In this document: one piece after another, positions 2,936 to 26,711 of the stretch | Numbering within the stretch: the stretch's first letter is position 1 | Layout: each line of letters starts with the position of its first letter | Source: a virus | Taxonomy: Duplodnaviria; Caudoviricetes | Virus record (IMG/VR): IMGVR_UViG_3300021560_000023 | Coordinates: 1 to 51,194 of that record | Length of the DNA: 51,194 bases | Direction: 5' to 3' (one strand) | The notes under the pieces: model-generated | The model's database searches: none | Told to the model about the DNA's origin: nothing | The model's input: only the letters and a program-made list of their open reading frames with translations | Made by a program: the position numbers and the translations under genes

Positions 2936-3008
2936 TTTCTGCCAATCTCTGATCGCGGACCATAGACCCTGGGCTACCCCCCAGGTGTCCCCCAGAACGC
3001 CTCAGAAA
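2935..3008. promoter_or_regulatory. Dispersed TCTGCCAAT / CCTGGGCTACCCCCCAGG module
   Basis: TCTGCCAATCTCT at 2938; 18-mer 2968-2985 identical to 26672-26689. Confidence 0.6.
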
Positions 3009-3084: not shown

Positions 3085-3939
3085 CTAGCGCACCCACCCT
3101 GCTGTCGGGTCAGTCAGCCATTCTCGCGGGTCCACCTCATCGAATGCCCCGCGGTCCACCCGCTCGCGGATCGTACAGCCCCGGTCAAAGTCCGCCTGGA
3201 ACGGGCACCGGCCGTGCGCGTAGCAGACAGGGCGGAACAGGTTGGACTCCGCGATGAACCGGAACTGCCACTCAGTCGAGCGGTCCGGCGGCTCATACGC
3301 CGCGAGAGCAGACACGATCTGGGAGCCGACCAGCCGCCACTCAAACTGGGCCTGTGTACACAGCCGGTTCCCCAGGTGGTCCACGAGGTTGCGGAGGTTG
3401 GTCTTGTAGTTCAGCCGGGTGAGCGTGTCGTGCGGGAGGAGCCCGCGAGCCTCCTCCGCGGGGACGCCGTTGGCGATCAGCGACCGGTACGCCTCCCACG
3501 TGTTCTTGATGTGCGCGTTCCAGACCCGCCTCGCCTGCTTGTTCGCTCCCACGAGCGGACCCGGGCGAGCCGCGATGTCCTCCTTGACCGCGAACCGCAT
3601 TGACTCCTGAGCGTACACCGCCGTCCGCTGGCGGACCATCTGGTGGGTGAACGCACGTGTGACGTTCTCCACCATAAAGTGGAGGTCCACCGCCTCCAGG
3701 GGAGCCTTGAGGTGCGTCGCATTAGCTTGGTCCCACGCCCAACGCCGCTCCTCGTCCGTTAGCTCCATCAGGGACCGGATCACCCGACCCTGGTACATGA
3801 AGGCGAATGCCGCTATGGACCCCAGCGGGTCCGGCGTGGCGGAGAGCAGGGTCACCGTTGGCATCCCGTGTCCCACGACCGGCTCCGCCGGATACATCGC
3901 CTTGTCCACGTATGTGCTGACTTCCGAACCTTCCGTCAT
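3085..3939 (-). CDS. thyX: FAD-dependent thymidylate synthase ThyX-like (RQR variant); start 3939 or 3948
   Basis: HLKAPLE, TRAFTHQMVRQRTAVYAQESMRF, AEEARGLLP, RLCTQAQFEW. Confidence 0.85.
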   Translation of the reverse strand: MTEGSEVSTYVDKAMYPAEPVVGHGMPTVTLLSATPDPLGSIAAFAFMYQGRVIRSLMELTDEERRWAWDQANATHLKAPLEAVDLHFMVENVTRAFTHQMVRQRTAVYAQESMRFAVKEDIAARPGPLVGANKQARRVWNAHIKNTWEAYRSLIANGVPAEEARGLLPHDTLTRLNYKTNLRNLVDHLGNRLCTQAQFEWRLVGSQIVSALAAYEPPDRSTEWQFRFIAESNLFRPVCYAHGRCPFQADFDRGCTIRERVDRGAFDEVDPREWLTDPTAGWVR

Positions 3940-4249
3940 CTCTCTCACTCCTGTGCTGCGCCAGGTGACGCTCGATGGTGTCCAAGGTAGCTTCTGCCAT
4001 CAGTGCCCGCTCCCGCCAGTAGAGTGCGTCATGCGACTCCGTGGGATCGTTGAGCAACCAGCTGAGCAGGAGGACCGTGGCAGAGCCGATCCGTCCCGCC
4101 TCCCATCTATAGAACGTTGACCGCGACACTCCCGCCTGCTCCGCCGCCTCCTTTGGGTCGAGGTCCCGGGCCAGCCTCGCCTCGCGGACGAGTCGCCCGA
4201 TGAACCGCTTCTGGTCACTGCTCGCCTCTGCCCACTCGTACGGTCTCAT
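3722..4249 (-). CDS. XRE-family HTH regulator
   Basis: IGRLVREARLARDLDPKEAAEQAGVSRSTFYRWEAG; ATGA overlap with dnaE stop; 3' tail overlaps thyX. Confidence 0.75.
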   Translation of the reverse strand: MRPYEWAEASSDQKRFIGRLVREARLARDLDPKEAAEQAGVSRSTFYRWEAGRIGSATVLLLSWLLNDPTESHDALYWRERALMAEATLDTIERHLAQHRSERDDGRFGSQHIRGQGDVSGGAGRGTRDANGDPALRHAGPAGVHSGIRLHVPGSGDPVPDGANGRGAALGVGPS

Positions 4250-7200
4250 GGAGTGATCACCCACATCCGCCGGACGTTGAGCTTGCGTACAGCCGACCTC
4301 GCGGGTTTGGACGCCTCGACCAGGAGGAGGTCGGAGCCCGTGTTGAACTCCATGATGTGGTCCCGGTACATCGGGAACCGCCAGCGGTCCACCGTGATCA
4401 GCAGCTGGTCGGTGTCGTCCTCGCCCGTCAACAGCGCCCACTCCCTGAGATGGGCGTCCTTCACCTGCGCCGGGTCTAGCTCGACGCCTCTGGCCCGGTT
4501 CTGTTCAAAGATGTCCCGGATGTTGAGCTTGAGGAACGTCCCCAGCCAGACGCACTTCACTGCTCGACCCACCAGGCTCTCGTCCGCGAGGTCCACGGCC
4601 GTATGAGTCGGCTCCGGGAGCCCGTGGCCCTCCTTCAACCACTCCCTCGTGTTGGCAATGTTCCGGTCGAGCAGGAACGCGCCAAACGGGTCCTCGTCCT
4701 CCAGCCATGCCTTGATCTTCTCCGCCGTCTTGGGGCCAAACCCCTTCAGCTCAACGATCTGGTCCCACGAGGTCGGTTGTCGGTCCCTCGCCCACTGAGC
4801 GACCACCGCCGCCGTCTTGGGTCCGATCCCATTGATGGCCCGGAACCCTGCCCTGATCCCGCCGTGTCGCCCGACCGGGGACCAGCCCTCCTCGCTCTTG
4901 GCCAGCGAGGGACGCCGGACCTTGATCTGGTGCTTGTCCGCGTCCCGGAGGAGGTTGCGTGTCCGCTCCGGGTCGCTCGCCGCCTCTGTGAGGCTCGCCG
5001 CGTAGAACACGTTGGTGTGATACTGCTTGAACCACTGGGTGTAGTAGCTCAGCAGTGCGTACCCGGCGCAGTGGGCCGCGTTGAAGGCGTACGCACCGCT
5101 GGTGACCATGTTCCCCCAGATGCGGTCCGCGAGAACCCGTGGCATCACCCGCTCCGCTCCAGCCAGGAACTCCTCCCGCCTCGCCTGGAACAGCTGCTCG
5201 CCCTTCTTGAGGGCGATGATCTTGCGTATCTCCGCGACACCGGCCGGAGGGAACCCGCCGATGTCCCGGGCCACGCTGAGTATCTGCTCCTGGTACACCA
5301 TCTGAAACTGGGTCGGAGCCGTGATGGCATCGTACGCCGGGTGGACCTTCTCCGGAGCCCGGAGCCCCGCCTTGATCTCCGCGTACTCGCGGGCGGCTCC
5401 GTTGTGGAGCGGTCCCGGGCGACAGAGGGCGATACAGTCCATCAACTCGCTGAACCGCTCCGGCTGGATGCCCGCCGTGACGTACCGGGTCGCCCGCCCC
5501 TCAAACTGGAAGATGCCCGTGAGGTCGCCCGCCCTGAACGCCTCGTACACCCGCGGGTCCCCTAGCTCCAGCCCGTACAGGTCGTGGGTCGTCATCCCGA
5601 CCCGCTTACAGCAGTCCCACAGCATTGACATCGTGTTGAGCCCCAGGAAGTCCATCTTGACGAGCCCCTGTCGCTCCGCGTCCGGCTTGTCGAGGGCGAC
5701 CACCTGAACGATCTGGCCGGAGCCCTTGGGGACCTCCCGCTCAGCGACCGTGGTCACCGATGTGATGGGTTCATTGCTCAACACCAACCCAGCCGCGTGG
5801 ACTCCGAACCCCTTGATGTTGCCCTCCAGCCAGCCGCCCTTGGCGAGGTCCGGGTTGCGGTCCCAGATGGCTCTCGCCTGTGGGAACTGTTCGATGGTGT
5901 CCTCAATGGTGCTGCTCGCCCGGAGGTCCCCGCTCGACCGCTCAATGAGGAACTTCTTCAACTCCTCGACCTCCCACTTGGGGATGCGGAACACCCGGGC
6001 GATGTCGTCCAAGGAGTTGCGCCCCTTGAACTGGATGTAGGTCCCGATGTTGTTGACGCAGCCGGGTCCCATCAGGTCCTCATAGAACCGCCGGAGCAGC
6101 GGGCGAGCCTCGCTGGGGAAGTCGAGGTCAATGTCCGGCAGGTCCTCGCGGGTCACGTCGATGAACCGGTCAAAGGACAGGAGCCCCTCAAACTCCCGGC
6201 GGAGCGGGTTGACCTCCGTTATCCCCAGCAGCCACGCCGCAATCGACGCAGCAGCCGAACCACGAGCCGGACCGACAGGAATGCCAAGAGACTTGACGTG
6301 GCGCACACCAGCAGCGACCAACAGGAAGTAGTCCACAAAGTCCTTCCCCTCGATGAGGGACATCTCGTGGCGCAGCTGGGCGCTGTACGGCTCCCGCTCC
6401 TCCGGGTCCAGCCGGTGTAGCCCGCGTTCACGCCAGCCCTGCTTGAGCAGGGCACGCCAATGCCCTGTCGCTGAGCCCTCCCCGGGCGGGAGCGGGTACC
6501 GGACCATTGGCAGCCGCGGGAGGGTAGCTGTACACTCCTGGGCAATCTCCTCTGTTGACACGATGGCTTCAATGGCCTCCTCCTTACTCAGCCCGGTCGC
6601 CCTCAGACGCCGGTACACGGTGGCATCGTTCGGTGGTGGGCAGAGTGGAGCCGTGTAGCCCCACTCCCTCGCCTGCTCCTCCAGGGTGCGCTTCTCGCCC
6701 GGCCGGAGGTTGTGGAGAATCTTCTGAACCTCCTGCTCCTCCAACATCGTGTAGTGGCAGTCGAGGGTGGCCACGAGCTGTGAGCCGATAGCCCGGGCGA
6801 GCCGCCCCGCGAGAGCGTTGAACCGCCGCGTGACCTCCAACTCCGGGAACGCCTGAACCTCGATCAGGTAGTTGTCCCCGAACGTCTCGCGGAACAGCTG
6901 GGCTATCCGGAGCCCTCTCGCGTACGAGGCACGCTCCTGGGGTATCCCCTTCCCGCCGACCGTCGCACACGCGAGGAGGCTGCCCTGACAGCCGGACAAC
7001 ACAAGGAGCCCGGCTCGCCGCCGGACGAGTTCGTCCCAGGTGACCGTGGGCTCATAGTAGAAGTGTTGCCACGAGCCGGTCACCAGGGCGAGGAGGTTGG
7101 CATAGCCCTGCTGGTCCTTGGCGATCAGGGTGAGGTGGTGCTTGCGCTGCGTCTCCGTGTCCGGCCGTCTCCAGAACCGGCCGCTGGGCATGTAGACCTC

Positions 7201-9317: not shown

Positions 9318-9954
9318 CGTAGCTCCTCATCAGTTCCATGATTGCGCTCGCCACCCCGGTGAGGGAGGCGAACTCCCATCCACTCCAACTCGCTGCCATG
9401 TTCCACTCCGACCGGCGGAGGATCGGTTGGCCCAAGTGTTCGATGCGCGCCTGGTCCAGGATCCAGGTCAGGTCATCGAGGACCGCCACGACCCGCCGCG
9501 GGTCTATCCGCCGGGCGAGTTCGCCCAGCTTGTTCTCCCCGAACAGCAACCCATCGAACTCGATGTTGTTGCGCCTCGCCCACTCCACGGAGTCCGGGTC
9601 AATCCGGTCATACCGGTTGTGAGGGCGGGTCGTGGTCAACCAGACTTCCGCTCCCGCCTCCCGGAGCAGCCGGGTGAGGTCGCTCGCTCCCGGGTAGGTG
9701 CCCATCGTCCGCTTCAGACCTCCCTGCCTGTACGCCAGCTTGATCGACCGGAACGTTGAGAGGTCGATGCCGAACGTCTGACACATCCAGTCCCGGAACC
9801 GCTCCCCGCCCTCGTACTCGACCCGCTTGGGCTGGTAGCCTAGCCAGCTGCTCGCGAACTCGATGAAGTGGGGGTGATACGGAGCCAGCGTCCCGTCGAT
9901 GTCGATGGCGACCACGGGCGGGACCGGCTCTGAGCAGCGTGAGCACAGCATCAT
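9199..9954 (-). CDS. HAD-family phosphatase (5'-nucleotidase-like)
   Basis: AIDIDGTL, LTTTRP, K, VLDD; N-terminal CxxC. Confidence 0.85.
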   Translation of the reverse strand: MMLCSRCSEPVPPVVAIDIDGTLAPYHPHFIEFASSWLGYQPKRVEYEGGERFRDWMCQTFGIDLSTFRSIKLAYRQGGLKRTMGTYPGASDLTRLLREAGAEVWLTTTRPHNRYDRIDPDSVEWARRNNIEFDGLLFGENKLGELARRIDPRRVVAVLDDLTWILDQARIEHLGQPILRRSEWNMAASWSGWEFASLTGVASAIMELMRSYDEGNGAGSSDEGAVEHRVSDPRRVDPGRMDRGQLRLPGY

Positions 9955-15633: not shown

Positions 15634-15708
15634 TTCTCTGCCAAAGCGGCATGGTTACCTGTACACTAGGCCAGCTGGCTCCGCTCGCCGCCAGAGATTG
15701 GCAGAGAG
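15634..15708. promoter_or_regulatory. Inverted pair TTCTCTGCCAA ... ATTGGCAGAGA (dispersed module)
   Basis: Same motif as at 246, 2938, 25372, 26642, 39765. Confidence 0.55.
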
Positions 15709-16125: not shown

Positions 16126-16313
16126 GACTGCTCCTTCCGCTTGCGAGCCGCCTCGACCCGCTCCTGTTGTTCCCGGAGTTCGCGCTCACGCTGCTCCGGC
16201 GTCATCCGGACGCCCAGGATGGAGGCAATCTCCTCCATCGCTGACGTCTCGCCCCGGCGGACCCGGGCCACGCGGTCCTCCGTGGTGTCTCGCTTCTTAC
16301 CCATCTTCATCAC
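16122..16313 (-). CDS. Hypothetical basic/coiled-coil protein
   Basis: GTGA coupling, AAGGAG RBS. Confidence 0.6.
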   Translation of the reverse strand: MMKMGKKRDTTEDRVARVRRGETSAMEEIASILGVRMTPEQRERELREQQERVEAARKRKEQS

Positions 16314-18133
16314 TGCTCCTTCTTGGTCATACGCTCCCTGATCTTCAGGATCGCGTCATTGTTGATCTGCTTCCCGGCCGTGATCTCCCAGATGTACTCC
16401 TGGATGCTGTCCTCCGTCCGGTAGTACAGGACGTTCAGGCTCGTGGTCCGGTTCCGCATCCCGCGGTCCTCCAGCTGCTCCTGATCGTCCGGGTTCCACG
16501 TCTCATCGAGGATGTGGATGGAACCGGTCATCCCCAGGTTCAGGCCCACACCGCCGGTCTGGGTGGTCATGACGAGCGTGCGAGCCTCGTCCGTCTCCTC
16601 CCGGTACCAGTCGAGGACCGCGTTGCGCCGGGCACCGGTGACGGTCCCGTCGAGCCGCTTGACCGCGAGCCCCTGCTTGCGCAGCCAGCCCTCGACCATC
16701 TCGACCATCCGCTGGGACTCGCTCGCCACGATGGCCTTGGCCCCGGGCTCCGCGTCCGCCGCCCGGACGCCGTACGTGTCCAGCCGGTCGAGCAGGATGG
16801 GCAGCTTGCCGGAGTCCTCCGTGGGCGTGACCGATCCGTCCGCCGCGACCTCGCACTTGGCGTTGGCCAGCTGCTTCAGGCGGGCGAACTCCGCGAGGAC
16901 GCCGTCAGCAGCGATCACGCCGCCGTCCACCGCGACTTCCGCCGCCCGCGAGAACCGCTCGTACACCTTCCGCTGGCTCTCCGTCATCCCTACCGGGACG
17001 TTGATGACCACCTTGGGGGGTAGTCCAGGGAGGGCTGTCGCCCGGTCCCGGCGGATCATATGACCGCGGTGCGCGGCCCAGAATGCCTCCTCCTTCCCGG
17101 GGTACAGCTTGCCGATCCCGGTGCCTGCTCCCGGGTCCACCGGTCCCGTCCCGTCCGCGTTCATGAGCCAGCGCTGCGCCCACTTCCACTTGCCCGGGTA
17201 CCGCTCCGGCTCGATGAAGTGGAGGACACCCCAGAGGCGAACCGGCTTGCCGCCCATCGGCGTCCCGCTCAGCGCGTACTTGCGGGTGGCCATCCGGCCC
17301 AGAGCCTCGACGCCGCGAGCGAACAGGGTGTTGCGGTCCGCTCCCAGCCCGTACTTGTGGAACTCATCGAGGGTCAGGGACGCCCACTTGACTCCGAACA
17401 GGCGAGCCTGGTCCGCGTCCTTGGGCTGGTACTCCCGCCCCTTGTGGTCCCGCGAGAGGACCGTGAGCCCGTTGTCGGCGTCCCGCGTCACCCGCACCAT
17501 CTCCGGGTTCACGATCAGCCACACGTTCCGCTCGCCCTGCTCGATGGCCGCGAGAGCAGCGTGGACCGCCGCCTTGCGCTCCTTGACGGACTCGCCCCAG
17601 AACACGCGGGCTCCGGGAGCGTGAGCCTTCAACTCGTCCGCCCACGGGTCCTTGTGGAGGGTGATCGGAGCCACGACCAGGTTCGGACCTTCCAGCCCGG
17701 ACTCCTGGACCGCGTAGATGACCTCCACCGTCTTGCCGACTCCCGGCTGGTTGGCGTTCAGCACGTTCTTGACGGCCATCATCGCCACGTCCGCCCGCTG
17801 GTACGGCCGGAGCCACGCCGCCGCGTCCCCGTTGACCCGGGAGAGCGTGGCGTCATCGGCGTCTGCGACGTTGTTGATCCGCCGCTCCGTCTTGACCTGC
17901 TCCCGCCCCCAGGCCTTGAGTGCGTTGCCCAGGACGAGCCCGGGACCGAACGCATCCCGGAGAGCCCGGCCGCTGTCGAGGTCGAGCGGCACCGACCAGT
18001 GCTTGGGGCTCGCGTCCCCGTGGAACTTCCGGCCGGTGATCTCCTTGACTGCCTCGACCGCGGCCGGATCGTACTTGAAGTGGACGTTGATCCGGGTCCC
18101 CTGCTCGTTGATCTCTGCGAATGCCTTCATCAT
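16310..18133 (-). CDS. SNF2-family helicase with HARP-like N-terminus
   Basis: LRPYQ, NQPGVGKT, TLDEFH, LSGTP, GGVGLNL, WNP..QLEDRGMR. Confidence 0.93.
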   Translation of the reverse strand: MMKAFAEINEQGTRINVHFKYDPAAVEAVKEITGRKFHGDASPKHWSVPLDLDSGRALRDAFGPGLVLGNALKAWGREQVKTERRINNVADADDATLSRVNGDAAAWLRPYQRADVAMMAVKNVLNANQPGVGKTVEVIYAVQESGLEGPNLVVAPITLHKDPWADELKAHAPGARVFWGESVKERKAAVHAALAAIEQGERNVWLIVNPEMVRVTRDADNGLTVLSRDHKGREYQPKDADQARLFGVKWASLTLDEFHKYGLGADRNTLFARGVEALGRMATRKYALSGTPMGGKPVRLWGVLHFIEPERYPGKWKWAQRWLMNADGTGPVDPGAGTGIGKLYPGKEEAFWAAHRGHMIRRDRATALPGLPPKVVINVPVGMTESQRKVYERFSRAAEVAVDGGVIAADGVLAEFARLKQLANAKCEVAADGSVTPTEDSGKLPILLDRLDTYGVRAADAEPGAKAIVASESQRMVEMVEGWLRKQGLAVKRLDGTVTGARRNAVLDWYREETDEARTLVMTTQTGGVGLNLGMTGSIHILDETWNPDDQEQLEDRGMRNRTTSLNVLYYRTEDSIQEYIWEITAGKQINNDAILKIRERMTKKEQ

Positions 18134-18140
18134 CGTCTCC

Positions 18141-18497
18141 TTACAGGCCCACGTAGTGCCGCTCGTGGCCCCACTTGGAGCCCAGGGTCAGGTACGCCTT
18201 CCCGTCCTCGTCCCGCCGGACGTACCCGGCGGAGCGGGTCGCCCGCTCGCCGCGGTCCTTACCAACGAGGGTCAGCCACGCCTCCTCGCCCGGCTCCAGC
18301 AGGAGGGCGGTGTAGAACTGGCCGACCGTCTCCGTGCCGCGTAGCGTCCCGTCCGGGCTCCGCCGGTACCGGTACGCCGCCAGCTGCGCCTCGCTGGGCT
18401 GCTGGTACGTTCCGAACATGTCCGCGAACGTCAGCACCAGGTCCGCCTCCTTGTGGTGGGTCCCGATCCGGACTTCAATCTCATACGGTCCAATCAT
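18141..18497 (-). CDS. Hypothetical early protein
   Basis: Follows promoter element P3; AGAAGGAG RBS. Confidence 0.7.
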   Translation of the reverse strand: MIGPYEIEVRIGTHHKEADLVLTFADMFGTYQQPSEAQLAAYRYRRSPDGTLRGTETVGQFYTALLLEPGEEAWLTLVGKDRGERATRSAGYVRRDEDGKAYLTLGSKWGHERHYVGL

Positions 18498-18823
18498 GTC
18501 TGCTCCTTCTCTTCATCGCGGGTTCCGGCCGCGTCCGGCTCCTTCACACTACGTGTGAGTATACCCGGCGGCTGCGCAAAGGTTACGCGGTGCCGCCCAA
18601 CTGCGAGGAGGTCCCTCATCCGCTCGATGGACACGACCGTCTCACAGTCTAGCTCTCCGTCCACGTACGCCTGGACCTTGATGACTCCCTTCCCGCCGGG
18701 CTGGTAGCAGATGAGCCGGTGGTCGTGGATGTTGAACTCCCGCTTGTTCTCGCCCGTCGAGCGGACCTCGACGCCCAGCTGGGCCGCGTCCCGGTCGAGC
18801 CGGGCGATGGTCTCATTCAGCAT
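18494..18823 (-). CDS. Hypothetical protein (3' end contains promoter P3)
   Basis: Coupled ORF. Confidence 0.55.
   Translation of the reverse strand: MLNETIARLDRDAAQLGVEVRSTGENKREFNIHDHRLICYQPGGKGVIKVQAYVDGELDCETVVSIERMRDLLAVGRHRVTFAQPPGILTRSVKEPDAAGTRDEEKEQT
18516..18586 (-). promoter_or_regulatory. Early promoter element P3
   Basis: GTAACC-N17-TATACT, hairpin TCACAC-GTA-GTGTGA, leader motif CCGGACGCGGCCGGAACCCGCGA. Confidence 0.8.
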
Positions 18824-19007
18824 GGTCGATCACCCGCCAGCCGTTGTCGAACCGCTTGACCTTGTCCTCCTGGCGGAGGGCGGACATCCCCACCCACACC
18901 CGACCCGGCCGGAGCCCGGTCGAGGTCGCCAGCTGGATCATCGACTGGTCCGGCCGCTCGCGGAGGGAGGCGAGCAGTGCCGCCTTGATCTCGTCCATCT
19001 CGCTCAT
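18813..19007 (-). CDS. Small winged-HTH protein
   Basis: LASLRERPDQSMIQLATSTGL..VWVGMSAL..V..GWRV; GGAGGAG RBS. Confidence 0.6.
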   Translation of the reverse strand: MSEMDEIKAALLASLRERPDQSMIQLATSTGLRPGRVWVGMSALRQEDKVKRFDNGWRVIDHAE

Positions 19008-19252
19008 CGTAGCTCCTCCGGGATGACTGCTGTCTTGAAGCAGTAGGTGCACGGCCGGGTCCCGTACCCGCCTTGGGGCCAGGACTTGTCGACCAAGGCG
19101 GAGTGCCCGCACGCCTTCCGCGGGCACGTGATCTTGTAGCCTCCTGCTACCCGGCGGGTCCCCCAGAACGGGAGGACCCAGACCGGCGGGGTGGCCCCTT
19201 GTGCAGGAGCCACCCCCTCGCTGTTTCTCTGTGGCGTAGGCATGATCGGCAC
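19004..19252 (-). CDS. Small Zn-ribbon protein
   Basis: CPRKAC...CTYC. Confidence 0.6.
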   Translation of the reverse strand: MPIMPTPQRNSEGVAPAQGATPPVWVLPFWGTRRVAGGYKITCPRKACGHSALVDKSWPQGGYGTRPCTYCFKTAVIPEELR

Positions 19253-19264
19253 CGGTCCCCTGTA

Positions 19265-20335
19265 CTAGCCCTCAGGCAGCTGCCGGCGGGAGCCGATACG
19301 CTGTCCCGGGGAGTTGGAGAGGTCCGCCCGGTCCGCCGCGGCTGCTCCGTGGTTGGCCGCCTCGTACGAGTACGCACGCTCACGGGCCACCGCGGTTGAC
19401 TTCCGCTTCTTGCCCTTGGACGCGACCGGCTCCGGAGCAGGCCACATCTCGTTGTACAGGCTCACCGCGTTCTGGTAGATGTCGCGGAGGACGATGGCGG
19501 TGGAGCCGGTGTCCCCGCTCCCGCCGTCATCGCGGCGCATCCGTCGCAGCCGCTCATCGATGCGGTTGACGAACCCGTCCGCGTAGCTCCGCTGGTACAC
19601 CGCGGGGTTCACGTAGTTCCGCGGCAGCCCGTTCTCCTTGACGTACCGGCGGTTGAGGTTCGCGAGGTTGTTCTTGACGCCGGTCCAGTACGCCTCGCTG
19701 AGGGTCGAGAAGTCATCCTCAAGCGTGTGCTGCTCCGTCTCGTTGACGTACGCTCTGGCGGAGTAGTCCCACCGGCGGCTCGCGATGCCCTTGCGGAGGG
19801 GAGTGGCCTGGCGAGCCACCCACATCCGGCGGGTGATCTCCTTCCAGCCCATCCCGGCCATCCGCATCGTGTACACGTTCTTCCCGGGCTCCGCGGCCGG
19901 GTCCACGTCCGGCGTGAGGTTCCGGCTCATCTGGAGCATCAGGGACGTGAACAGCATGTCGAACCAGTCGAGGTCGGAGGAGAGCCCGATGACGGGCATC
20001 TTCTTGTAGTCGCCTCCCGCCTCGCGAGTCCCGTGGCCGCGGAGGGCGACCACGCAGCGGCAGTGGCGGGCAACGTCCCCGAACATCCACCACAGCTGGC
20101 TCGACTGGGGGTGACGGTACCACCAGTCAAAGTTGAACGTCCGGACCTCCGGCTTGGGCCGCTCCGTCGAGCCCTTCTGAGCCTCGTCCACCATCCACTG
20201 CTCGATGGCGTACTGGGCCATGATCTGATCCGCCTTGGCGCGGAAGGAGTCCGCCTCGCCCTCGAACTCCGTGGAGTCCGCCTTGGCGATGAGGGCACGT
20301 ACCCGCTCCAACATCTTCTCTGTCTTGGTGCTCAT
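19265..20335 (-). CDS. DUF2786-domain protein
   Basis: MLERVRALIAKADST..EAD.F.AKADQIMAQYAI; YQRSYADGF. Confidence 0.8.
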   Translation of the reverse strand: MSTKTEKMLERVRALIAKADSTEFEGEADSFRAKADQIMAQYAIEQWMVDEAQKGSTERPKPEVRTFNFDWWYRHPQSSQLWWMFGDVARHCRCVVALRGHGTREAGGDYKKMPVIGLSSDLDWFDMLFTSLMLQMSRNLTPDVDPAAEPGKNVYTMRMAGMGWKEITRRMWVARQATPLRKGIASRRWDYSARAYVNETEQHTLEDDFSTLSEAYWTGVKNNLANLNRRYVKENGLPRNYVNPAVYQRSYADGFVNRIDERLRRMRRDDGGSGDTGSTAIVLRDIYQNAVSLYNEMWPAPEPVASKGKKRKSTAVARERAYSYEAANHGAAAADRADLSNSPGQRIGSRRQLPEG

Positions 20336-20365
20336 GATCTGAATCTCCGTTCAGTCGGTGGGTTG

Positions 20366-21010
20366 TTAGTGGAACCGCCGGGCGCAGACGGGACCGATCC
20401 CGCGAGCCCTGCTCTCGTCATTGGTGAGTCCGCGGCCGCAGATGCCGCACCGGCCGTACTCGTGGCCGAACAGCGTGGCCGCCGCCGCCGGGTCCTCCGC
20501 GATCTGCGCCAGCACCTTCAGCTGGAGCGGGAACCCGATCTTGTACTTGTCGTCCGACACGTACATCCGGATGTTCCAGCCGCCGCGGTCCCCGATCCAC
20601 AGCTGGAAGAACGTGGTGTCGTTGGTGAAGTCCTCGCCCGGCGTCTCGACGCCGTACGAGCCCGCGTACACCTTCCGCCCGTCCGGGAGGACGAGGACGC
20701 CGGTGCGCTTGGTCCCCTTGTCCGTCTCCTGCTCCTCGTACGTGACCTGCGGCCGGTCCTGGCCGTTGGCGGCTCCCGCCTTCCGCGGGAGGGACTTGAG
20801 GAAGTCGATGACCTCGCTCGCCTTCTCCTTGGTGAACTCGCCGCGGTCCATCAGCTGCGCGACCCGCTGGTCAAACGCCTCCCGCCGCTTGGGGGTCATC
20901 TCCTTCTGCTCCAGCAGGCTCGTGATGTAGCCCAACTGGGGGTCGGTCGCCCCGCCGTGGTCGCTCGTGGCGTCCGTGAACTCCGCGGGGACTTGAGACC
21001 TTTCAACCAT
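20366..21010 (-). CDS. DUF6011-domain protein
   Basis: C-terminal CGICGRGLTNDESRARGIGPVC; N-terminal ATDPQLGYI. Confidence 0.8.
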   Translation of the reverse strand: MVERSQVPAEFTDATSDHGGATDPQLGYITSLLEQKEMTPKRREAFDQRVAQLMDRGEFTKEKASEVIDFLKSLPRKAGAANGQDRPQVTYEEQETDKGTKRTGVLVLPDGRKVYAGSYGVETPGEDFTNDTTFFQLWIGDRGGWNIRMYVSDDKYKIGFPLQLKVLAQIAEDPAAAATLFGHEYGRCGICGRGLTNDESRARGIGPVCARRFH

Positions 21011-21035
21011 TTCATGCTCCTTCTGTCTGCTGACT

Positions 21036-21106
21036 TCCCGGGTTCCGGCCGGGTCCGGTCACTTCGCACTCCGTGCGAGTATACCCGGCGGCTCACCAAA
21101 GGTTAC
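21036..21106 (-). promoter_or_regulatory. Early promoter element P2
   Basis: GTAACC-N17-TATACT, hairpin TCGCAC-GGA-GTGCGA, leader CCGGACCCGGCCGGAACCCGGGA. Confidence 0.82.
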
Positions 21107-21119
21107 GCCGCCGGGCTCC

Positions 21120-21344
21120 TCACAGCGCTATCAGGTCGCTCACCGCGCAAGTCCGGATGCCTCCGTGTTGGGCGATGAACTGGACCAACGTCTCCCGCCG
21201 GTAGCCGGGCTCTCCGTCGAGCCCGGGTCCGGTCGGTCCGGCGGGGAGCCACTTGAGCAGCTTCACGCAGACGTGATCTGACTCGATGGTCCCGCCGCCA
21301 AGGGAGCGGGGCATCCTGGTGATCTGGTGTAGCTTCCGATTCAT
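21120..21344 (-). CDS. Hypothetical protein
   Basis: 74-aa ORF filling a gap on the coding strand. Confidence 0.5.
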   Translation of the reverse strand: MNRKLHQITRMPRSLGGGTIESDHVCVKLLKWLPAGPTGPGLDGEPGYRRETLVQFIAQHGGIRTCAVSDLIAL

Positions 21345-21370
21345 CAGGAGCCCCGCTCGCTCGTCAAACG

Positions 21371-22297
21371 TCAGTCCGTCTTGGAAGGGTTTGCCTTGGT
21401 GGCCGCCTTCCGTCCACGCTTGGCCGTGGTCGCCTTCTTGGCGGGAGCCGCCTCCTCCTGCGCTCCCTCCTCCTTGGTGTCCGCGGACTCCGTGGCCGCC
21501 TTGGCGGACGCCTTCCGCCCGCCGCCGGAGGGAGCAGCGTCACCCACGACCTCGCGCAGGTCCGCCTCGCTCTTGCCGGTCATGAGGGCGAGCATGTACC
21601 ACGCGGTGCCCTCCTCCCGCTCCTTGACGAGGCGAGCCTTGAGCTTGGCCCCGGAGAGCCCGCTGATGTCCTCGTACTCCAGAGCCTCGCCCTTGGAGTT
21701 GAACCCGGCTCGCGCCAGAGCCTCGCGCATCGGCACGTCACTGCTGACGCCGTACTTCTTCTTGAGGCTCTGCATCGTCTCGCCGCCCTGGCGAGCCGTC
21801 CTGATCTCGCCCACGAGCCCGTCCCAGTCCTCCGCGGTCCGGCGGGCGGACCCGTTGGACTTGGCCGCGGTGGCGGTCGTGGTCTTGGTCTCCTCCGCCT
21901 TCTTGGTGGCGGACTTGCTGCGTGTTACCTTGGCCATGGTGGCCTCCTTGTTGGTTGTTGTTTCGCTGCTGTTGTCCTGCTCGCGGAGCAGGCGAGCGTA
22001 CAGCCTCGCCTTCTCCGCCGTCTTGACGCACGAACGGGCACCCGCGTAGTTGGGTCCGCCGTCCATGCCTCCTCCCTCGCTGTTCCCGATGGCCATCGCA
22101 TCGAGCCACTCAGCTAGGTCATCGAGGTCGAGAGCGGTGAGCCTGACGGTCCCACCGCTGCTCCCGACCCGGTGTAGCTCCTCCGCCAGGTGCGGGCTGT
22201 ACCCGCTGTCCTTGGTCGGGTCGCTGATCTCGCTCCCGCTCGCCTCGCCCGCGATGAACCGGGTGATCTTGAGCGGGCGGGTCGCCTGGAAGGTCAT
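21371..22297 (-). CDS. Hypothetical protein; internal start at 21937 gives a Lys/Ala-rich HTH-like DNA-binding protein
   Basis: ATG 22297 with GGGAGG; second in-frame ATG 21937 preceded by AACAACCAACAAGGAGG. Confidence 0.7.
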   Translation of the reverse strand: MTFQATRPLKITRFIAGEASGSEISDPTKDSGYSPHLAEELHRVGSSGGTVRLTALDLDDLAEWLDAMAIGNSEGGGMDGGPNYAGARSCVKTAEKARLYARLLREQDNSSETTTNKEATMAKVTRSKSATKKAEETKTTTATAAKSNGSARRTAEDWDGLVGEIRTARQGGETMQSLKKKYGVSSDVPMREALARAGFNSKGEALEYEDISGLSGAKLKARLVKEREEGTAWYMLALMTGKSEADLREVVGDAAPSGGGRKASAKAATESADTKEEGAQEEAAPAKKATTAKRGRKAATKANPSKTD

Positions 22298-22536
22298 CGG
22301 TCCTCCCAGCTGAGTCCGTGGGGGTTGATGATCTGCTCCGCGGAACACATGAAGCAGAACCCCATGAACGTCTCGCCCGTGGCGTCATCCGGGGCGAGAG
22401 CGTGAGGCTGCCCCCTCCGGATAGCGCCACACCCGTCACACGTGTAGGTGACGGTCGAGTGATAGCCGCGATGTCCCTGGGCTAGGGTACAGACCCCACC
22501 CCCACGGACCGGAGACTGGCAGAGAGCAGTCGCCAT
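22294..22536 (-). CDS. Small Cys/His-rich Zn-binding protein
   Basis: C..CTLAQGHRGYH..CDGC..CFMC. Confidence 0.6.
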   Translation of the reverse strand: MATALCQSPVRGGGVCTLAQGHRGYHSTVTYTCDGCGAIRRGQPHALAPDDATGETFMGFCFMCSAEQIINPHGLSWEDR

Positions 22537-22539
22537 CGA

Positions 22540-22917
22540 TCAGCCCTCCAGCTTCCGGTCGAGGCGAGCCAGTTCCCTCCGGCGTGCCTCGTCCATCGCG
22601 AGGTCCCGGGAGCCGTGGGGCGCATCCTCGCCCACCCAATCCCCGGTCCAGGTGTCGGTGACCATCCACCGCTCCTCCCCGAACTCGTCCCTGGTGACCT
22701 CGACGCCATAGCGCGGGTCCGGCTCCTCGTCCGGCTCCCCGGCGTACGGGTCCGGGTCGCCCCAGCCCTCCCACCGGTCCGCGTCCCCGTACGTGGCGTC
22801 ATCGGCACGCTCCTGCTCCGCCGTGTAGTAGTGGTCGGAGTTCGGGCAGATGTGGTAGCAGCCGCTCCCCATAGGGGAGCAGCCGCAGTTGGGGCAGGTG
22901 TTCTCGTTGGCGGCCAT
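22540..22917 (-). CDS. Hypothetical protein with N-terminal Zn finger
   Basis: CPNCGC..GC..ICP; GGAGGG RBS. Confidence 0.65.
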   Translation of the reverse strand: MAANENTCPNCGCSPMGSGCYHICPNSDHYYTAEQERADDATYGDADRWEGWGDPDPYAGEPDEEPDPRYGVEVTRDEFGEERWMVTDTWTGDWVGEDAPHGSRDLAMDEARRRELARLDRKLEG

Positions 22918-22921
22918 CGTG

Positions 22922-23434
22922 TTAGCCCTCCGCCTTGGTCGAGGACTTCCGTGCCCGCTTGGTCTTGGCCGCCTCGCGGTCCGCCTCCCGCTTGCGCAGG
23001 ACCTTGGCGAGGTACGCCGTGGCCTTGATGTCGAGGGCGAGCCCGATGGCCTTGTAGCTCTCGCCCTTGGCCCGCCGTGCCTCCGCGTCCTTCAGCTGCT
23101 CCTCCGTGTACCGCGGACCGGTCGCCCCGCTCCCGCCCGTACGTCCGGCCGCGACTGCCTCCTTGGCCGGGAACGCCTTGTTGAAGTCCGCCGCCGCCGC
23201 CTTGCGTGCGCCCTGCTCATTCTGGACATCGTGGTAGCTCTGCCAGGTCAGCGTCCGCTCCCCGTTGATGTGCTCGCTCGCGAGGAGCCCGCCCAGACGC
23301 CGGAGGAGGCTGTTGACCTCCTTGACGTCCCGGCCGGTGTGCTTGGCGATGTCGGCCGCTTCCACGGCCCAGTTGTCAACGACAAACATGTAGACCTCGC
23401 GGAGGGCGGGGCGGATATTCGTGGTGGTGCTCAT
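22922..23434 (-). CDS. Double-HTH DNA-binding protein, first early gene
   Basis: wHTH-like N-terminus and KGESYKAIGLALDI HTH; downstream of P1. Confidence 0.65.
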   Translation of the reverse strand: MSTTTNIRPALREVYMFVVDNWAVEAADIAKHTGRDVKEVNSLLRRLGGLLASEHINGERTLTWQSYHDVQNEQGARKAAAADFNKAFPAKEAVAAGRTGGSGATGPRYTEEQLKDAEARRAKGESYKAIGLALDIKATAYLAKVLRKREADREAAKTKRARKSSTKAEG

Positions 23435-23464
23435 CAGGTGGTTCCCTTCTGTTCGGTCCTGCTC

Positions 23465-23541
23465 TCCCGGGTTCCGGCCGGGTCCGGTCCGTCATCACTC
23501 CAACTCCGTTGGAGTATACCCGCGTACGTGGAGAACGTTAC
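23465..23541 (-). promoter_or_regulatory. Early promoter element P1
   Basis: GTAACG-N17-TATACT, hairpin ACTCCAAC-GGA-GTTGGAGT, leader CCGGACCCGGCCGGAACCCGGGA. Confidence 0.82.
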
Positions 23542-23627
23542 GCCGCCGGTCAAATCCCCAGCGGGTGCGGGGGAGTCCTGCTCCCCAGGTTATCGGCCGG
23601 AGCCGCCGGGACGTTAGCCGGTGACGG

Positions 23628-25136
23628 CTACCCGCCCGCCCCGCTAGTGAACGACCACCCGGCCAGTAGCTCCGCGGTCCCCAGCGGACCGGTCACTCGT
23701 ACGTCACAGGGACCTGTAGCCCCAGCCGGAGCCGATGCCATCACGCACGTCACGGTGGAATCGTCCACGACCACCACATTGGTGGCCAGCGTCATGTACC
23801 CGTTGTCAAGCACCACTGTAACCACGCCGGTCAGCCCGGTCCCGCTGAGCGTGACCGCCGTCCCCTCCGGACCTTCAGCCGGAGTACAGCTGGTCAAGGT
23901 CGGAGCCTGCTCCGCAATGGACGTGAGCGGGAGCGTGTTGGTCCAAGGCGTGTAGTCCGCGTTGGCGACAAAGATCACACCCTCACCCGCGGGGACCGTC
24001 ATCAGGTTCGCCTCCGCGGTGATCTCGTACGTCCCGCCCACGGTGATCGTCAACTCCCAGTCGGAGCCGTACTCCGCATCTTGGAAGATGACCCGCTTGG
24101 CGGTGAGGTCGCCCGGGAAGAACCCGGAGAGCGTGAAGCTGGTGACGGCGTCAATCGTGGAGTCGAACTCCTCCGGCACTACGCTGCTCAGAGTCGGGTC
24201 AGACACGACCACATACGGGACCGCGTTGGTGTAGTCGGTGTAGGTGTCGAGGTCGTGTAGCTTGATCGTCCCTGATCCGGGAGCGACCGGGCTGAAGTCG
24301 AATGTTGACGTGACCAGCGTGTCCGACACCTTGACCGCGTCCCCATAGTGGTGGGTGTTGTCCGCCATCACCAAGTCCACCGCCATGTTCACGGAGAACG
24401 GCTCCGGGAAGTAGCCGTTGAGCGTGAGGGCAATGCCCGCCTCGTTGGGCGCGATGCGAGGGATGACACTGCTGAGGGAGGGACCGCGGACCGCTCCGCC
24501 GTGTTCCCGGAGGTCGTGATAGGTCGCGTACGCGAGGGCGAGGTCAGCATACGTCCCCGGCGGAGTCATCTCCGCGGACTCGTCCGTCATGGCCTGGTAG
24601 TCCCAACCCTCGATGTGCCTGTACGCCAGCACCAGCCCGCCTGGGAGGACCGATTCCAACACCCTCTGAGTGAGAGCCGGGTCCGGCGTCTCCGGGTCGA
24701 GCGTCACGACCTCCAGCCGGTACGCGGAGCCGTCCCGCTCGCGGAAGTACACCGTGGCCGGAGCAGGAGGACGGGCGGAGACGAGGGTGCCCATGAGGCT
24801 CGCCCGGATCGCCTCCACGGTCCCCACGTTGTGACCCGCCGCCTGCTTGAGGAACACCCGCGTGTCCTCCTCCGACATCCCCGCCGGGATGCGAACTCCG
24901 ACCAGCTGAGCCAGCCACGGCAGCGCCCATGCTGGACACACGTTGACGTCGAACAGAGGACCCCACGGTGGGTACGGCTCCGGCGGGTCGATGAGCGCAC
25001 ACACCTGGAGATACGGCTGCGCGAGTGCCTCACAGAGGATGGCGTGCGCCCACCCGTACAACTCGTCATTCGGCTGGAGCGGCTGCGTCCGCTCGCGGAG
25101 CCGCTCACCCCACTGCGACATCACCGGCTCAGCCAC
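23628..25136 (-). CDS. Baseplate wedge protein (P2 gpI-like) with C-terminal IPT/TIG Ig-like repeats
   Basis: CPAWALPWLAQLVG..GTVEAI; repeated P.L.S..P..G....TL.G. Confidence 0.75.
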   Translation of the reverse strand: MAEPVMSQWGERLRERTQPLQPNDELYGWAHAILCEALAQPYLQVCALIDPPEPYPPWGPLFDVNVCPAWALPWLAQLVGVRIPAGMSEEDTRVFLKQAAGHNVGTVEAIRASLMGTLVSARPPAPATVYFRERDGSAYRLEVVTLDPETPDPALTQRVLESVLPGGLVLAYRHIEGWDYQAMTDESAEMTPPGTYADLALAYATYHDLREHGGAVRGPSLSSVIPRIAPNEAGIALTLNGYFPEPFSVNMAVDLVMADNTHHYGDAVKVSDTLVTSTFDFSPVAPGSGTIKLHDLDTYTDYTNAVPYVVVSDPTLSSVVPEEFDSTIDAVTSFTLSGFFPGDLTAKRVIFQDAEYGSDWELTITVGGTYEITAEANLMTVPAGEGVIFVANADYTPWTNTLPLTSIAEQAPTLTSCTPAEGPEGTAVTLSGTGLTGVVTVVLDNGYMTLATNVVVVDDSTVTCVMASAPAGATGPCDVRVTGPLGTAELLAGWSFTSGAGG

Positions 25137-25270
25137 GGCTCGACCTCCGATCCTCCATAGTACGAGGGCCATAGTACGATGCGCCGTAGTACCAACTACT
25201 TGGCCTCGTACTACGCATCCCGTTGGTCCGTTTCACAAAATAGGTGTAATGTTTCAGACATTTGAAAACT

Positions 25271-25404
25271 GGCCAAAAATTTGTGCCAAAATAGCAGGGA
25301 CTTTTGACGCTAACAAAAGGCGTGAGGGGGTACCTGCATTAGGGGCCAGCTGAATGGCCCGAACACGGGAGATTGGCAGAGAGTTGGCTCTAGTGAACAA
25401 TTGG
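25271..25404. repeat. AT-rich multi-block element, copy B (inverted relative to 214-333)
   Basis: e.g. TGGCTCTAGTGAACAATTGG (19/20) and TAGGGGCCAGCTGAA (15/15) match the reverse complement of copy A. Confidence 0.85.
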
Positions 25405-25413
25405 CCCGAACCC

Positions 25414-26649
25414 CTAGACCACCATAAAACTACAATTCGGACCGGGCTCCGGCATGGGCACGCAGCCACCCAAAATGATGTCCGCGGCTGCCCACGCGGA
25501 GTCCGCGGACTTCTTCATCTCAACGTTCTGAACCCAGTGTATCCCGGTCGCCCGGTTGAGCCAGTCGACAGCCTCGTACAGACGCACCCGGTCGTCAGTC
25601 GCCCAGTCCACGTGCGAGGTCGCTCCGGGGACCAGCCCCCACTGCTCCGGGTCGAGCCAGAGAGCGACCTGATCCATGGCCATCTGGATCGCGTCCTCCT
25701 CCGTCACACCTGGGTAGGGGTGAATCTCCGCCCGCACGTCGATGGGTGTGTACACGCCGTTCTCCCCTGGTGAGAGGACGTACACCAGGAAGTTGACCTC
25801 ACGGTTCGCCTTCAGGTCCTCGTACACCTCAAGGAGGAGGTCATCCGGCGGAGCGGTCCCCTTCTCCGCGGTGATGACGGTCGTGACGCACCGCTCGACG
25901 CCGGTGTGACTCGCTCCGTCCCGCGGGAGCCCGTACCCGCCCTCAGCGTCAGACGGCTGGTACAGGTTGACGCCCACTGCTCGACCGACCCGCGGATTCA
26001 GCAGCGCACGCTGGGCGTGGTCCCCGGAGAGGATCGGCCGTCCGTTGAGGATGGACAGGTAAATGGAGAACCGCCCCAGGTACGCAAGCGGGTCCTCCTC
26101 GTCCGATCCGCCCGCCGTAGTCTCACACGTGATGCTGCTCACGCCATCGTACGCCTCCTGGAAGTCCCCCAGGCCAAAGCAGCCATTCTGGGCGGAGCCC
26201 CGCTCCGTGGCGACCACCTTGAGCCCGGGGACCGTCCCGCCGCCTTGAGGAGCGAACACGTCCCGGTCCGTCTCAAACAGGTAGCTCGCCCCGCTGGGGT
26301 GCGGGAACGTCACCTGGGCTCCCTCCGGGACCATCGTGGCCGGAGTGTCCGCAGCGAACACGATGGACGCCGCTCCGCTCGCCGCCAGCCCGTCATCGAC
26401 CGGGAACCCGTACACGGTGGTGCCCAGGTACCCCATCGCCTCGCTTGGTATCTGAGACGCCTGCTCCACGACCTCGCTGGCCATCTGCCCGTTGGCCTCC
26501 ATCATGATCGTCTCCGGGCTCCCCGGCCGGGACACCCAGCCCGGGATGGCTGTCTCCATGTACTCGATGGAGTACAGCGTCATCTGATCGGAGTCCATCA
26601 TCAGGTCGAGGTCGGTGTACTCCGTGTCAATGCTCATGTTCTCTGCCAT
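25414..26649 (-). CDS. Baseplate J-like protein (start 26649 or 26637)
   Basis: VPEGAQV..VVA...GSAQN..GGSDEEDPLAYLGR; follows gp25. Confidence 0.85.
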   Translation of the reverse strand: MAENMSIDTEYTDLDLMMDSDQMTLYSIEYMETAIPGWVSRPGSPETIMMEANGQMASEVVEQASQIPSEAMGYLGTTVYGFPVDDGLAASGAASIVFAADTPATMVPEGAQVTFPHPSGASYLFETDRDVFAPQGGGTVPGLKVVATERGSAQNGCFGLGDFQEAYDGVSSITCETTAGGSDEEDPLAYLGRFSIYLSILNGRPILSGDHAQRALLNPRVGRAVGVNLYQPSDAEGGYGLPRDGASHTGVERCVTTVITAEKGTAPPDDLLLEVYEDLKANREVNFLVYVLSPGENGVYTPIDVRAEIHPYPGVTEEDAIQMAMDQVALWLDPEQWGLVPGATSHVDWATDDRVRLYEAVDWLNRATGIHWVQNVEMKKSADSAWAAADIILGGCVPMPEPGPNCSFMVV

Positions 26650-26711
26650 TCTCCCGGTTGCGAGTGTGGGACCTGGGCTACCCCCCAGGGAAGGTCTGCG
26701 CGTTGGCAGAG
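26639..26711. promoter_or_regulatory. Dispersed module TCTGCCATT..CCTGGGCTACCCCCCAGG..TTGGCAGAG
   Basis: 18-mer identical to 2968-2985. Confidence 0.6.

Follow-up and report, generated by a model that had tools for sequence, protein, structure and literature searches.

Three promoter-like modules with a paired inverted repeat at the predicted start site in the genome of an uncultured soil phage

The viral record IMGVR_UViG_3300021560_000023 analysed here, 51,194 bases long and called the window throughout, is one contig containing a whole phage genome. Three of its sites, denoted P1, P2 and P3, have the appearance of promoters fused to a small inverted repeat with a C-GNA-G loop. Positions 1-123 of the window are identical to positions 51072-51194, and the presence of this 123-base repeat at both contig ends implies that the genome is complete, either circular or terminally redundant. 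The G+C content is 64-68% along the whole genome, and all convincing genes reside on the - strand. On that strand, packaging, head, contractile-tail and baseplate genes run from 51 kb to 23.6 kb (terminase, Mu-type portal, protease, capsid, sheath, tape measure, baseplate J and a collar-domain fibre), and are followed down to 0.4 kb by a replication/nucleotide arm, encoding a SNF2 helicase, a PD-(D/E)XK nuclease, an AAA_24 protein, DnaE, ThyX and a primase/helicase-like protein (1295-2935). The phage is a complete, lytic-looking, high-GC, uncultured soil phage with contractile-tail genes and actinophage-like proteins. The three sites are placed exactly at the head of the replication/nucleotide arm, which they presumably drive as early or middle promoters.

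The bipartite motif GCGTAAC-N16-GGTATACT has three exact matches in the window, all on the - strand (23513-23543, 21078-21108 and 18558-18588), and none in 100 dinucleotide shuffles. The three promoter motifs which a preliminary description of this DNA had read on the coding strand as GCGTAAC(C/G)-N17-TATACT are therefore real matches, and the distances of 2435 and 2520 bp given there between the -10 boxes agree with the match coordinates. Exact copies of the 8-mer GGTATACT occur only at P1, P2 and P3; with one mismatch allowed, 9 matches are found versus 6.96 expected, a number by itself not significant. In all modules the order of the components is the same. The bipartite promoter is followed by a C-GNA-G inverted repeat of 6-8 bp which starts from inside the -10 hexamer (repeat 1), by a leader hairpin (hairpin 2), and by a Shine-Dalgarno sequence and a start codon, found 47-79 nt past each -10.

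At P1 the upstream (-35-region) box GCGTAAC, followed by G, spans positions 23537..23543, and the -10 hexamer TATACT, preceded by GG, positions 23513..23520. Repeat 1, ACTCCAAC-GGA-GTTGGAGT, has an 8 bp stem overlapping the ACT of the -10 (23497..23515), and hairpin 2 (CCCGG-CCGGAAC-CCGGG) is found at 23466..23482; the first gene behind P1 encodes P0001, a protein of 170 amino acids (aa; 22922..23434). At P2 the box, followed by C, is located at 21102..21108, 12 nt after the TGA of an upstream 74-aa open reading frame (ORF), GG and TATACT at 21078..21085, repeat 1 (TCGCAC-GGA-GTGCGA) at 21064..21078, and hairpin 2 (CCCGG-CCGGAAC-CCGGG) at 21037..21053. The gene behind P2 encodes a 214-aa protein with a C-terminal DUF6011 domain (20366..21010). 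P3 includes the box, again followed by C (18582..18588), GG and TATACT (18558..18565), repeat 1 (TCACAC-GTA-GTGTGA; 18544..18558), and hairpin 2 (18517..18533), which reads CGCGG-CCGGAAC-CCGCG, a compensatory change with respect to P1 and P2. The gene behind P3 encodes P0004 (118 aa; 18141..18497), and is followed by the SNF2-type helicase gene (16310-18133). All these features are on the - strand.

The whole P3 module (box, -10 and both hairpins; 18494-18588) is translated as the last ~35 codons of P0005, a conserved ORF of 109 aa (18494..18823, - strand) whose stop overlaps the next start codon (ATGA). Being inside a conserved ORF tail, the promoter sequence dictates the protein sequence there. 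The P0005 homologue in the related locus L015 (9224-9652) likewise reads through its module copy. Neither the position of P3 in the 3' tail of P0005 nor hairpin 2, which has a 5-bp G+C stem and a 7-nt loop, CCGGAAC, and starts 5-11 nt past repeat 1, appeared in the preliminary description. Within a phage, the loop of hairpin 2 and the upstream box are similar in sequence, CGGAACC compared with CGTAACC in the window (18517-18588, 21037-21108 and 23466-23543), CCAACG compared with TCAACG in two of the three copies of the related locus L018 (3813-3933 and 9561-9681). This is a post-hoc observation, and one reader might touch both sites.

Hairpins of the C-GNA-G type with a stem of at least 5 bp number four in the whole window, all on the - strand, and three of them are the repeats of P1, P2 and P3. 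From P1 to P3 their stems, which begin 1-3 nt inside TATACT, are 8, 6 and 6 bp in length, and the loops are GGA, GGA and GTA; three hairpins with differing stems had been reported at these very positions. When folded as single-stranded DNA, each hairpin comes out as the minimum-energy structure; z-scores are -2.8 to -2.9 for the coding strand and -2.0 to -3.7 for the other strand. The GNA loop resides at all sites on the coding, hence non-template, strand of the downstream genes. The background given earlier on N4 promoters and GNA mini-hairpins agrees with the literature (PMC4496689, PMC13037366). In the N4 hairpin the closing C:G pair and the loop's 5' G and 3' A are needed for extrusion and stability (PMC4496689), and, when 64 triloops were tried in the context GCNNNGC, only GNA formed a mini-hairpin, with a melting temperature of 70-76 C (PMC13037366). 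A N4 hairpin placed inside the E. coli rrnB promoter abolished promoter activity in a gyrase-dependent manner (PMC4496689).

Close copies of the module have been found in few genomes. Nine could be aligned, coming from four contigs: three from the window, three from L015, two from L016 and one from the fragment L003. L015 and L016, whose helicases are 87% identical to that of the window, carry three and two full copies, respectively. L046, the one stretch coming from a metagenome scan, carries the same module sequence as L003. Scanning a viral collection with the bipartite motif yielded 14 stretches, 6 of which are family members from 3 contigs; hairpins are absent from the other 8. A scan with the loop pattern of hairpin 2 yielded 12 stretches, 4 from the same contigs and 8 unrelated. 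A scan of one genome per prokaryote species, in which stem positions were left free, returned 3 stretches, all in Clostridia-type assemblies and lacking the upstream box, one with complementary free positions; these are treated as chance matches, not as a pointer to the host.

Both boxes are invariant in the nine copies, and the spacer varies in sequence, not in length. All 96 pair cells across the two helices (9 copies, 11 pairs) are Watson-Crick. Two-sided changes affect four of the 11 pairs, two per helix, and one-sided changes are absent. The observed percentage of paired cells and the observed covariation score are each reached in 0 of 500 shuffles, and sliding the partners by 1-3 columns leaves only 15-46% of the cells paired. 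Covariation across related phages, mentioned in the preliminary description as a way to check the hairpins, is thus found, pairing being kept by matched changes, which indicates that the pairing of the hairpins is under selection. The independent compensatory events in the close group would be about three for repeat 1, and two for hairpin 2. Alignment positions C48, G49, A51 and G52, corresponding to the closing C:G pair and to the G and A of the loop, are invariant in all nine copies. Synteny is maintained as well, since the copies in L015, L016 and L018 are found about 0.4, 3 and 5.5-6 kb upstream of the helicase gene. The fixed distance between boxes, the variable spacer sequence, the location 47-79 nt ahead of a Shine-Dalgarno sequence and start codon, and the synteny in relatives all fit the earlier view that the sites are promoter-like.

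A natural variant separates the two hairpins. In L016 the first gene and its leader are under a different promoter, TTGTGC-N17-TATAGT, in which the GCGTAAC box and repeat 1 are missing, and hairpin 2 is kept. Homology resumes within the 3' arm of repeat 1, and L015 carries both promoter types in tandem. The L016 arrangement suggests that repeat 1 goes with the promoter, and hairpin 2 with the transcript. A TTGAC(C/T)...TATAGT element upstream of the first early gene (L015 4080-4170, L016 4760-4810) replaces the GCGTAAC promoter in L016 and precedes it in L015, and the window retains the TTGACC word alone. The difference among the three genomes looks like promoter turnover by short-homology deletion.

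More distant relatives were drawn from IMG/VR by a helicase search, which yielded 31 loci. L018, with a helicase 65% identical to that of the window, carries a 121-nt repeat three times, once at each of the three syntenic positions. Its boxes are TCAACG followed by TACGAT or TACGCT, and its stems are unrelated to those of the window. One copy combines TACGCT with GCTcTGTCC-GAA-GGACAtAGC, the others TACGAT with GATGTGCT-TGC-AGCACATC and GATGTGTT-TGC-AACACATC. As in the window, the repeat starts inside the -10 hexamer, and a second hairpin comes after it. Ahead of each L018 promoter copy (3720-3812, 6427-6512 and 9465-9550) are the long-range inverted words CCTAAGGCCCTG ... CAGGGCCTTAGGG, which could be large stems, or terminators upstream of the promoters. 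In L017 (helicase 68% identical) TTGnnn-N17-TAGGAT is followed by GCGC-GCA-GCGC, in L044 (42% identical) TATACT by CCCC-GTA-GGGG; in both cases the element is intergenic and precedes a ribosome-binding site. The loop centre falls 6-9 nt past the -10 hexamer in all four lineages. Among gene-strand triloop hairpins located 4-8 nt past a TANNNT hexamer in the window plus the 31 loci, 12 of 77 are of the C-GNA-G type, compared with 61 of 3010 elsewhere, and the same position on the opposite strand gives 1 of 83. The mirror form C-TNC-G, which would place GNA on the template strand, never occurs near such hexamers, and the assignment of the loop to the non-template strand at P1-P3, made in the preliminary description, is in keeping with this figure. 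The distant relatives provide a stronger argument than the covariation in the close group.

No RNA polymerase or sigma factor has been recognized in the Pfam, PHROGs and NCBIfam scans of the phage ORFs, in line with the earlier statement that no phage polymerase is evident; the largest ORFs encode DnaE (1087 aa) and a tail fibre (958-977 aa). This makes the host polymerase the most probable reader, with sigma-A as the first choice of sigma factor, since the downstream element is GTAT within TATACT and relatives have TTG-type boxes for the same genes. The -10 hexamers, TATACT in the nine copies and TACGAT, TACGCT, TAGGAT, TAGGTT or TATACT in the relatives, all conform to the housekeeping form TANNNT. 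Actinobacterial -35 elements are loose. P0001, the product of the first gene behind P1, has an N-terminal winged-helix-like region and a C-terminal helix-turn-helix (HTH)-like region, and is conserved in 11 relatives. Every family match of this protein is below the curated cut-off, including the one to Sigma70_r4_2 (E = 0.036), the only trace of a phage sigma factor or polymerase, which is far below it and lies in the wrong part of the protein. A profile search against solved structures gave nothing below E = 0.1, and an Atlas search provided leads only, with scores of 0.86 or lower. P0001 is a candidate phage DNA-binding factor, nothing more. A 64-aa HTH_24-like ORF is found at 18813-19007. 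Other interpretations of the sites have been discarded. The word TAACCT within the upstream box is not the real -10, because it reads TAACCG in the first L015 copy and has no equivalent in L018. Nor do the hairpins look like intrinsic terminators, since neither is followed by a T-run; a terminator scan found 3 sites versus 2.7 expected, all on the + strand and none at the modules.

In the standard promoter geometry the -10 hexamer occupies positions -12 to -7, and transcription should accordingly start at about the seventh base after TATACT, within the G-N-A loop. According to the model favored here, the host polymerase would use the -10 TATACT together with a lineage-specific upstream box, GCGTAAC, 17 bp away, and start ~7 nt past the hexamer in the loop of repeat 1. 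With such a start, of repeat 1 only the 3' arm would enter the transcript of the module, and hairpin 2 would be transcribed in full, as a 5'-leader RNA structure. Repeat 1 would be selected both for pairing and for the coding-strand C-GNA-G mini-hairpin, and act as DNA within the promoter. Indirect reasons to read repeat 1 as DNA are that the invariant positions are those required for extrusion of the N4 hairpin, that the loop sits at the predicted start in four lineages, and that the P3 hairpins lie within a translated ORF tail. The repeat could work in two ways. Negative supercoiling might extrude it as a small cruciform, so that the end of the -10 and the start site leave the duplex, and the promoter would become sensitive to template topology. 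Alternatively, the displaced non-template strand might fold after initial transcription unwinds positions +3 to +8; the fold would pull the T at -7 off sigma, and promoter escape would be favored.

The preliminary description had proposed that the hairpin stabilizes the open complex. The open-complex bubble extends from about -11 to +2, and DNA is scrunched in the initial transcribing complex. In the open complex the 3' arm (+3 to +8) is therefore still duplex, and the T at -7, part of the 5' arm, is held by sigma, so that by this geometry the hairpin should not stabilize this complex. The fold would be possible only as a cruciform before polymerase binding, or in the scrunched initial transcribing complex. 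Folding of the non-template strand, while the template arm sits in the RNA-DNA hybrid, would also account for the invariable location of the stable loop on the non-template strand. Of the earlier reading, the promoter look, the coding-strand loop, the failure to find a phage polymerase and the selected pairing are retained, and stabilization of the open complex, as it was worded, finds no support; the early timing and the reading of the hairpin by a phage factor, also proposed there, are kept as conjectures.

Overall, it is likely that P1, P2 and P3 are promoter modules with a selected start-site repeat, and a probability of roughly one half is given to the fuller reading, in which they are host-polymerase promoters whose repeat 1 works as DNA in initiation. 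The start-site repeat probably tunes how the host polymerase starts. We infer promoter function, start site and DNA-level action from sequence comparison, and the sign of the effect, positive or negative, has the same standing. It is more doubtful whether this clade of soil actinophages has built a true structural switch, in which a non-template C-GNA-G hairpin, extending from the end of the -10 to about +8, strips the -10 from sigma, or gates the promoter through a cruciform. With such a switch, structure encoded in the DNA would control, without any protein, how a multisubunit RNA polymerase initiates, in mirror image to the hairpin which N4 has on the template strand.

Several points weigh against the fuller reading. 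A 15-nt cruciform is costly in energy, a non-template fold competes with the grip of sigma on the -10, and the precedent of the stem-loops fused to early promoters in T4-type phages, the PeSLs, would assign such structures a role at the RNA level (PMC2839356). Of the four covariation measures, the two count-based ones are less extreme than the others, being equalled by 32 and 40 of 500 shuffles, and copies within one genome can be homogenized by recombination. The hairpin scans took perfect Watson-Crick stems only, and the absence of G:T pairs is informative for the nine aligned copies alone. The -35 region, GTAACC or GTAACG at 17 bp, fits TTGACA at three of six positions, and a promoter scan of positions 17800-24200 with the E. 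coli-type consensus found no sites. The first operon of L016 manages without repeat 1, one L017 copy has a stem of only ~2 bp, in two L018 copies the loop is TGC, closed by T:A, in place of GNA, and no such element has been seen in L019. Finally, 8 of the 12 C-GNA-G cases counted above come from three closely related genomes, and one, in L037, was not inspected, which leaves about four independent lineages.

Similarities to known systems are partial. Like the window, phage N4 has three early promoters, also named P1-P3, with a small hairpin whose stem measures 5-7 bp and whose 3-nt loop belongs to the C-GNA-G type (for N4, GGA or GAA); some of its stem bases are conserved, the rest are free as long as pairing holds, and the closing C:G and the loop G and A are critical (PMC4496689, PMC13037366). 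In the same sources, however, the N4 hairpin is on the template strand and centred at -11, whereas that of the window resides on the coding strand, with its centre at the predicted start; N4 depends on a T7-like virion RNA polymerase of its own, 3,500 aa long, and none was found encoded in the window; and the sigma-type -10 and the upstream box at promoter spacing, present in the window, are features that the N4 promoters, as described there, do not have. The sites are not N4-type promoters, because the two defining features, template-strand position and a T7-like polymerase, are lacking, and a N4-like mechanism was rejected, GNA being on the wrong strand and no phage polymerase having been found.

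PeSLs, known from the T4-type phages RB49 and phi1 (PMC2839356, PMC4122927), are closer in form. In these elements a repeated host-type early promoter is fused to a stem-loop, which often overlaps the -10, and is followed by a Shine-Dalgarno sequence and a start codon. The copies of the window, too, look exchangeable, because the CCAAC-GGA stem is at the first promoter in the window and in L015, and at the second in L016; moreover, L016 lost its first module through a deletion ending in the 3' arm. Yet PeSLs, in the passages cited, are many and flank small ORFan cassettes, whereas the window has 3 copies 2.4-2.5 kb apart (2.4-3 kb across genomes). PeSLs have consensus sigma70 boxes and an AT-rich upstream element, and G/C-tract stems in variable position which were shown to terminate transcription; the window hairpins are fixed on the start site, and have short stems, GNA triloops and no T-run, with one copy inside an ORF. 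The modules resemble PeSLs in form, not in number, hairpin position or terminator features. A precedent for a small non-template DNA hairpin serving as a regulatory signal in transcribing bacterial RNA polymerase is offered by the ops/RfaH system (bioRxiv 10.1101/324400). In that account ops is a fixed 12-nt leader word, read in a paused elongation complex by a NusG paralogue, whereas the hairpin of the window spans -7 to +8 of the promoter itself. An ops-like word has 5 one-mismatch matches in the window versus 4.2 expected, none near the promoters on the gene strand. Within the open-access literature searched, which covered the motif itself, the early promoters of phiC31 and actinophage promoters with a hairpin or cruciform, no description of the element was found.

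A role of the repeat at the RNA level is the main alternative, though an unlikely one. The repeat would fold in read-through transcripts, running from the late genes into P1, and from P1 into P2 and P3; the PeSL-type stem-loop would attenuate, pause or be cut, each module would reset expression, and a two-hairpin RNA element would arise from repeat 1 and hairpin 2 together. Read-through RNA carrying both arms must exist, because all genes point the same way and the modules are not separated by any terminator-like site; with the 5' arm included, both hairpins belong to the minimum-energy RNA fold. A coding-strand GNA is as compatible with RNA as with non-template DNA, and one PeSL stem-loop reduced reporter expression like a strong terminator (PMC2839356). 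The window hairpins, however, lack a T-run, the ribosomes translating the tail of P0005 would unwind both hairpins of P3, and the stability of the RNA folds is unremarkable (z -0.7 to -1.5). Rfam gave no matches at the gathering level, and a single chance-level microRNA match on the other strand (E = 0.016). The hypothesis also leaves unexplained both the loop position 6-9 nt past the -10 in four lineages, and the preference for the C-GNA-G mini-hairpin, which is DNA-specific. A palindromic operator is much harder to reconcile with the sequences. A dimeric phage or host protein bound to the start site would shut the promoters off, and the center of the repeat, on the predicted start, is a classic repressor position; outer TC..GA and inner AC..GT positions are invariant in the nine close copies, and HTH proteins are encoded nearby (P0001 and the ORF at 18813-19007). 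Against an operator, three different self-complementary stems coexist in one genome, mixed half-sites are not found among the nine copies, two unrelated stems are present in L018, and covariation would not be expected at operator positions which the protein does not contact. Nor would a symmetric duplex site be expected to show the strand asymmetry of the loop (12 versus 0).

Whichever role the hairpin has, the promoters could be read by something other than the housekeeping sigma, either an actinobacterial extracytoplasmic function (ECF) sigma of the SigD type, or a host polymerase which a phage activator, bound to GCGTAAC, has redirected. The latter arrangement would recall the MotA-dependent middle promoters of T4. 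Such a reader, compatible with any function of the hairpin, is given a minor share of the likelihood. SigD motifs, possibly not those of the host, are GTAAC(A/G)-N16-CGAT in M. abscessus (PMC13537577) and GTAAC(A/G)-N17-18-GAT in C. glutamicum (PMC6338062). The promoters of Mycobacteriales described in these papers share with the window, which has GTAAC(G/C)-N16-GTAT, an upstream GTAAC plus purine or C and a 16-nt gap. In addition, L018 and one L044 site have an AAC word ~17 nt ahead of the -10, and the gene of P0001, a conserved protein with two HTH-like regions, is the first behind P1. Against SigD, the downstream element is GTAT, within TATACT, in all nine copies rather than CGAT or GAT, and P2, P3 and six related copies have GTAACC, outside the A/G consensus (P1 has GTAACG); the passages concerned mention no hairpin at the start site of SigD promoters (PMC13537577, PMC6338062). 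TATACT with a preceding G is moreover a good housekeeping-type -10, L017 and the P1 variant of L016 use TTGnnn-N17-TANNNT for the same genes, and the matches of P0001 to known families, all below curated cut-offs, do not favor an activator. The least probable alternative, a very remote one, is that the sites are single-strand initiation signals. Promoter firing would displace the coding strand and expose them there for priming or as origins, and the phage primase-helicase would use them. GNA mini-hairpins do occur at origin priming sites of G4-type phages and in ssiA of RSF1010 (PMC13037366), and the phage encodes the primase/helicase-like protein (1295-2935) and a DnaE-type polymerase. But three copies are present, each tied to a promoter and the start of a gene, neither iterons nor an AT-rich unwinding element is found alongside them, GC skew does not switch in the region, and nothing connects the primase to the sites.

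Cultured relatives of the phage are distant. Megablast found no close cultured relative, and the sole match in a distant DNA search is a segment of 80-130 nt of a DUF6011-type gene in mycobacteriophages. The best protein matches, 30-35% identical, are to phages of Arthrobacter, Gordonia, Rhodococcus, Streptomyces and Mycobacterium. The Arthrobacter phage PrincessTrina (L062), a cultured distant relative, has no such start-site hairpins and carries a different repeated intergenic motif instead. Many right-arm genes of this phage are preceded by the word AAAACAGGCACG, followed ~15 nt later by a GAGAATAT- or GGAAATA-like word (examples are L062 21370-21399, 34608-34637 and 44279-44350). The runs listed for positions 17000-24500 of the window are all soil DNA metagenomes (16 of 16), with no RNA runs. 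Contigs of four DNA runs were compared with the window, and one variant strain, X4, was seen; among its differences listed, none falls within the P2 or P3 module, the nearest being at 18612, 21033 and 21029, plus an insertion behind 21014.

Other non-coding features of the genome may be mentioned. No tRNA genes were found in the window. A non-coding stretch of ~290 nt immediately precedes the first packaging-side gene, and an AT-richer non-coding gap of ~240 nt (25173-25416, - strand) is found ahead of a 514-aa TIG-domain tail gene. The latter has a long stretch in common with L016 (about 3950-4060), and may be a conserved region, either regulatory or specifying a small RNA. A second repeated intergenic word, CTCTGCCAATCTC, occurs in both orientations (15694-15706 and 25369-25381 on the - strand, 39767-39779 on the + strand), and with one mismatch at 2937-2949(+), 22512-22524(-) and 26641-26653(+). 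Allowing up to 2 mismatches, 9 matches are found versus 1.76 expected, a number equalled in none of 100 shuffles, mostly in non-coding gaps. The word may be an operator or a late-promoter element.

Hairpin promoters are known in two forms, the N4 template-strand hairpin with its own polymerase, and the T4-type PeSL, a promoter combined with an RNA terminator. The modules described here are filed with such promoter-hairpin cassettes as a putative variant not previously described. They would represent a third arrangement, in which a N4-type mini-hairpin is found on the other strand, on the start site of an apparent host-polymerase promoter, and is kept by compensatory change across phages with helicases 42-87% identical. 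If the hairpins act as RNA, the PeSL idea would be extended from T4-type phages of Gram-negative hosts to actinophage-like soil viruses. If they act as DNA, phages may be able to tune initiation or promoter escape of bacterial RNA polymerase by non-template-strand structure alone, and the modules would provide compact, portable promoter parts for high-GC actinobacteria.

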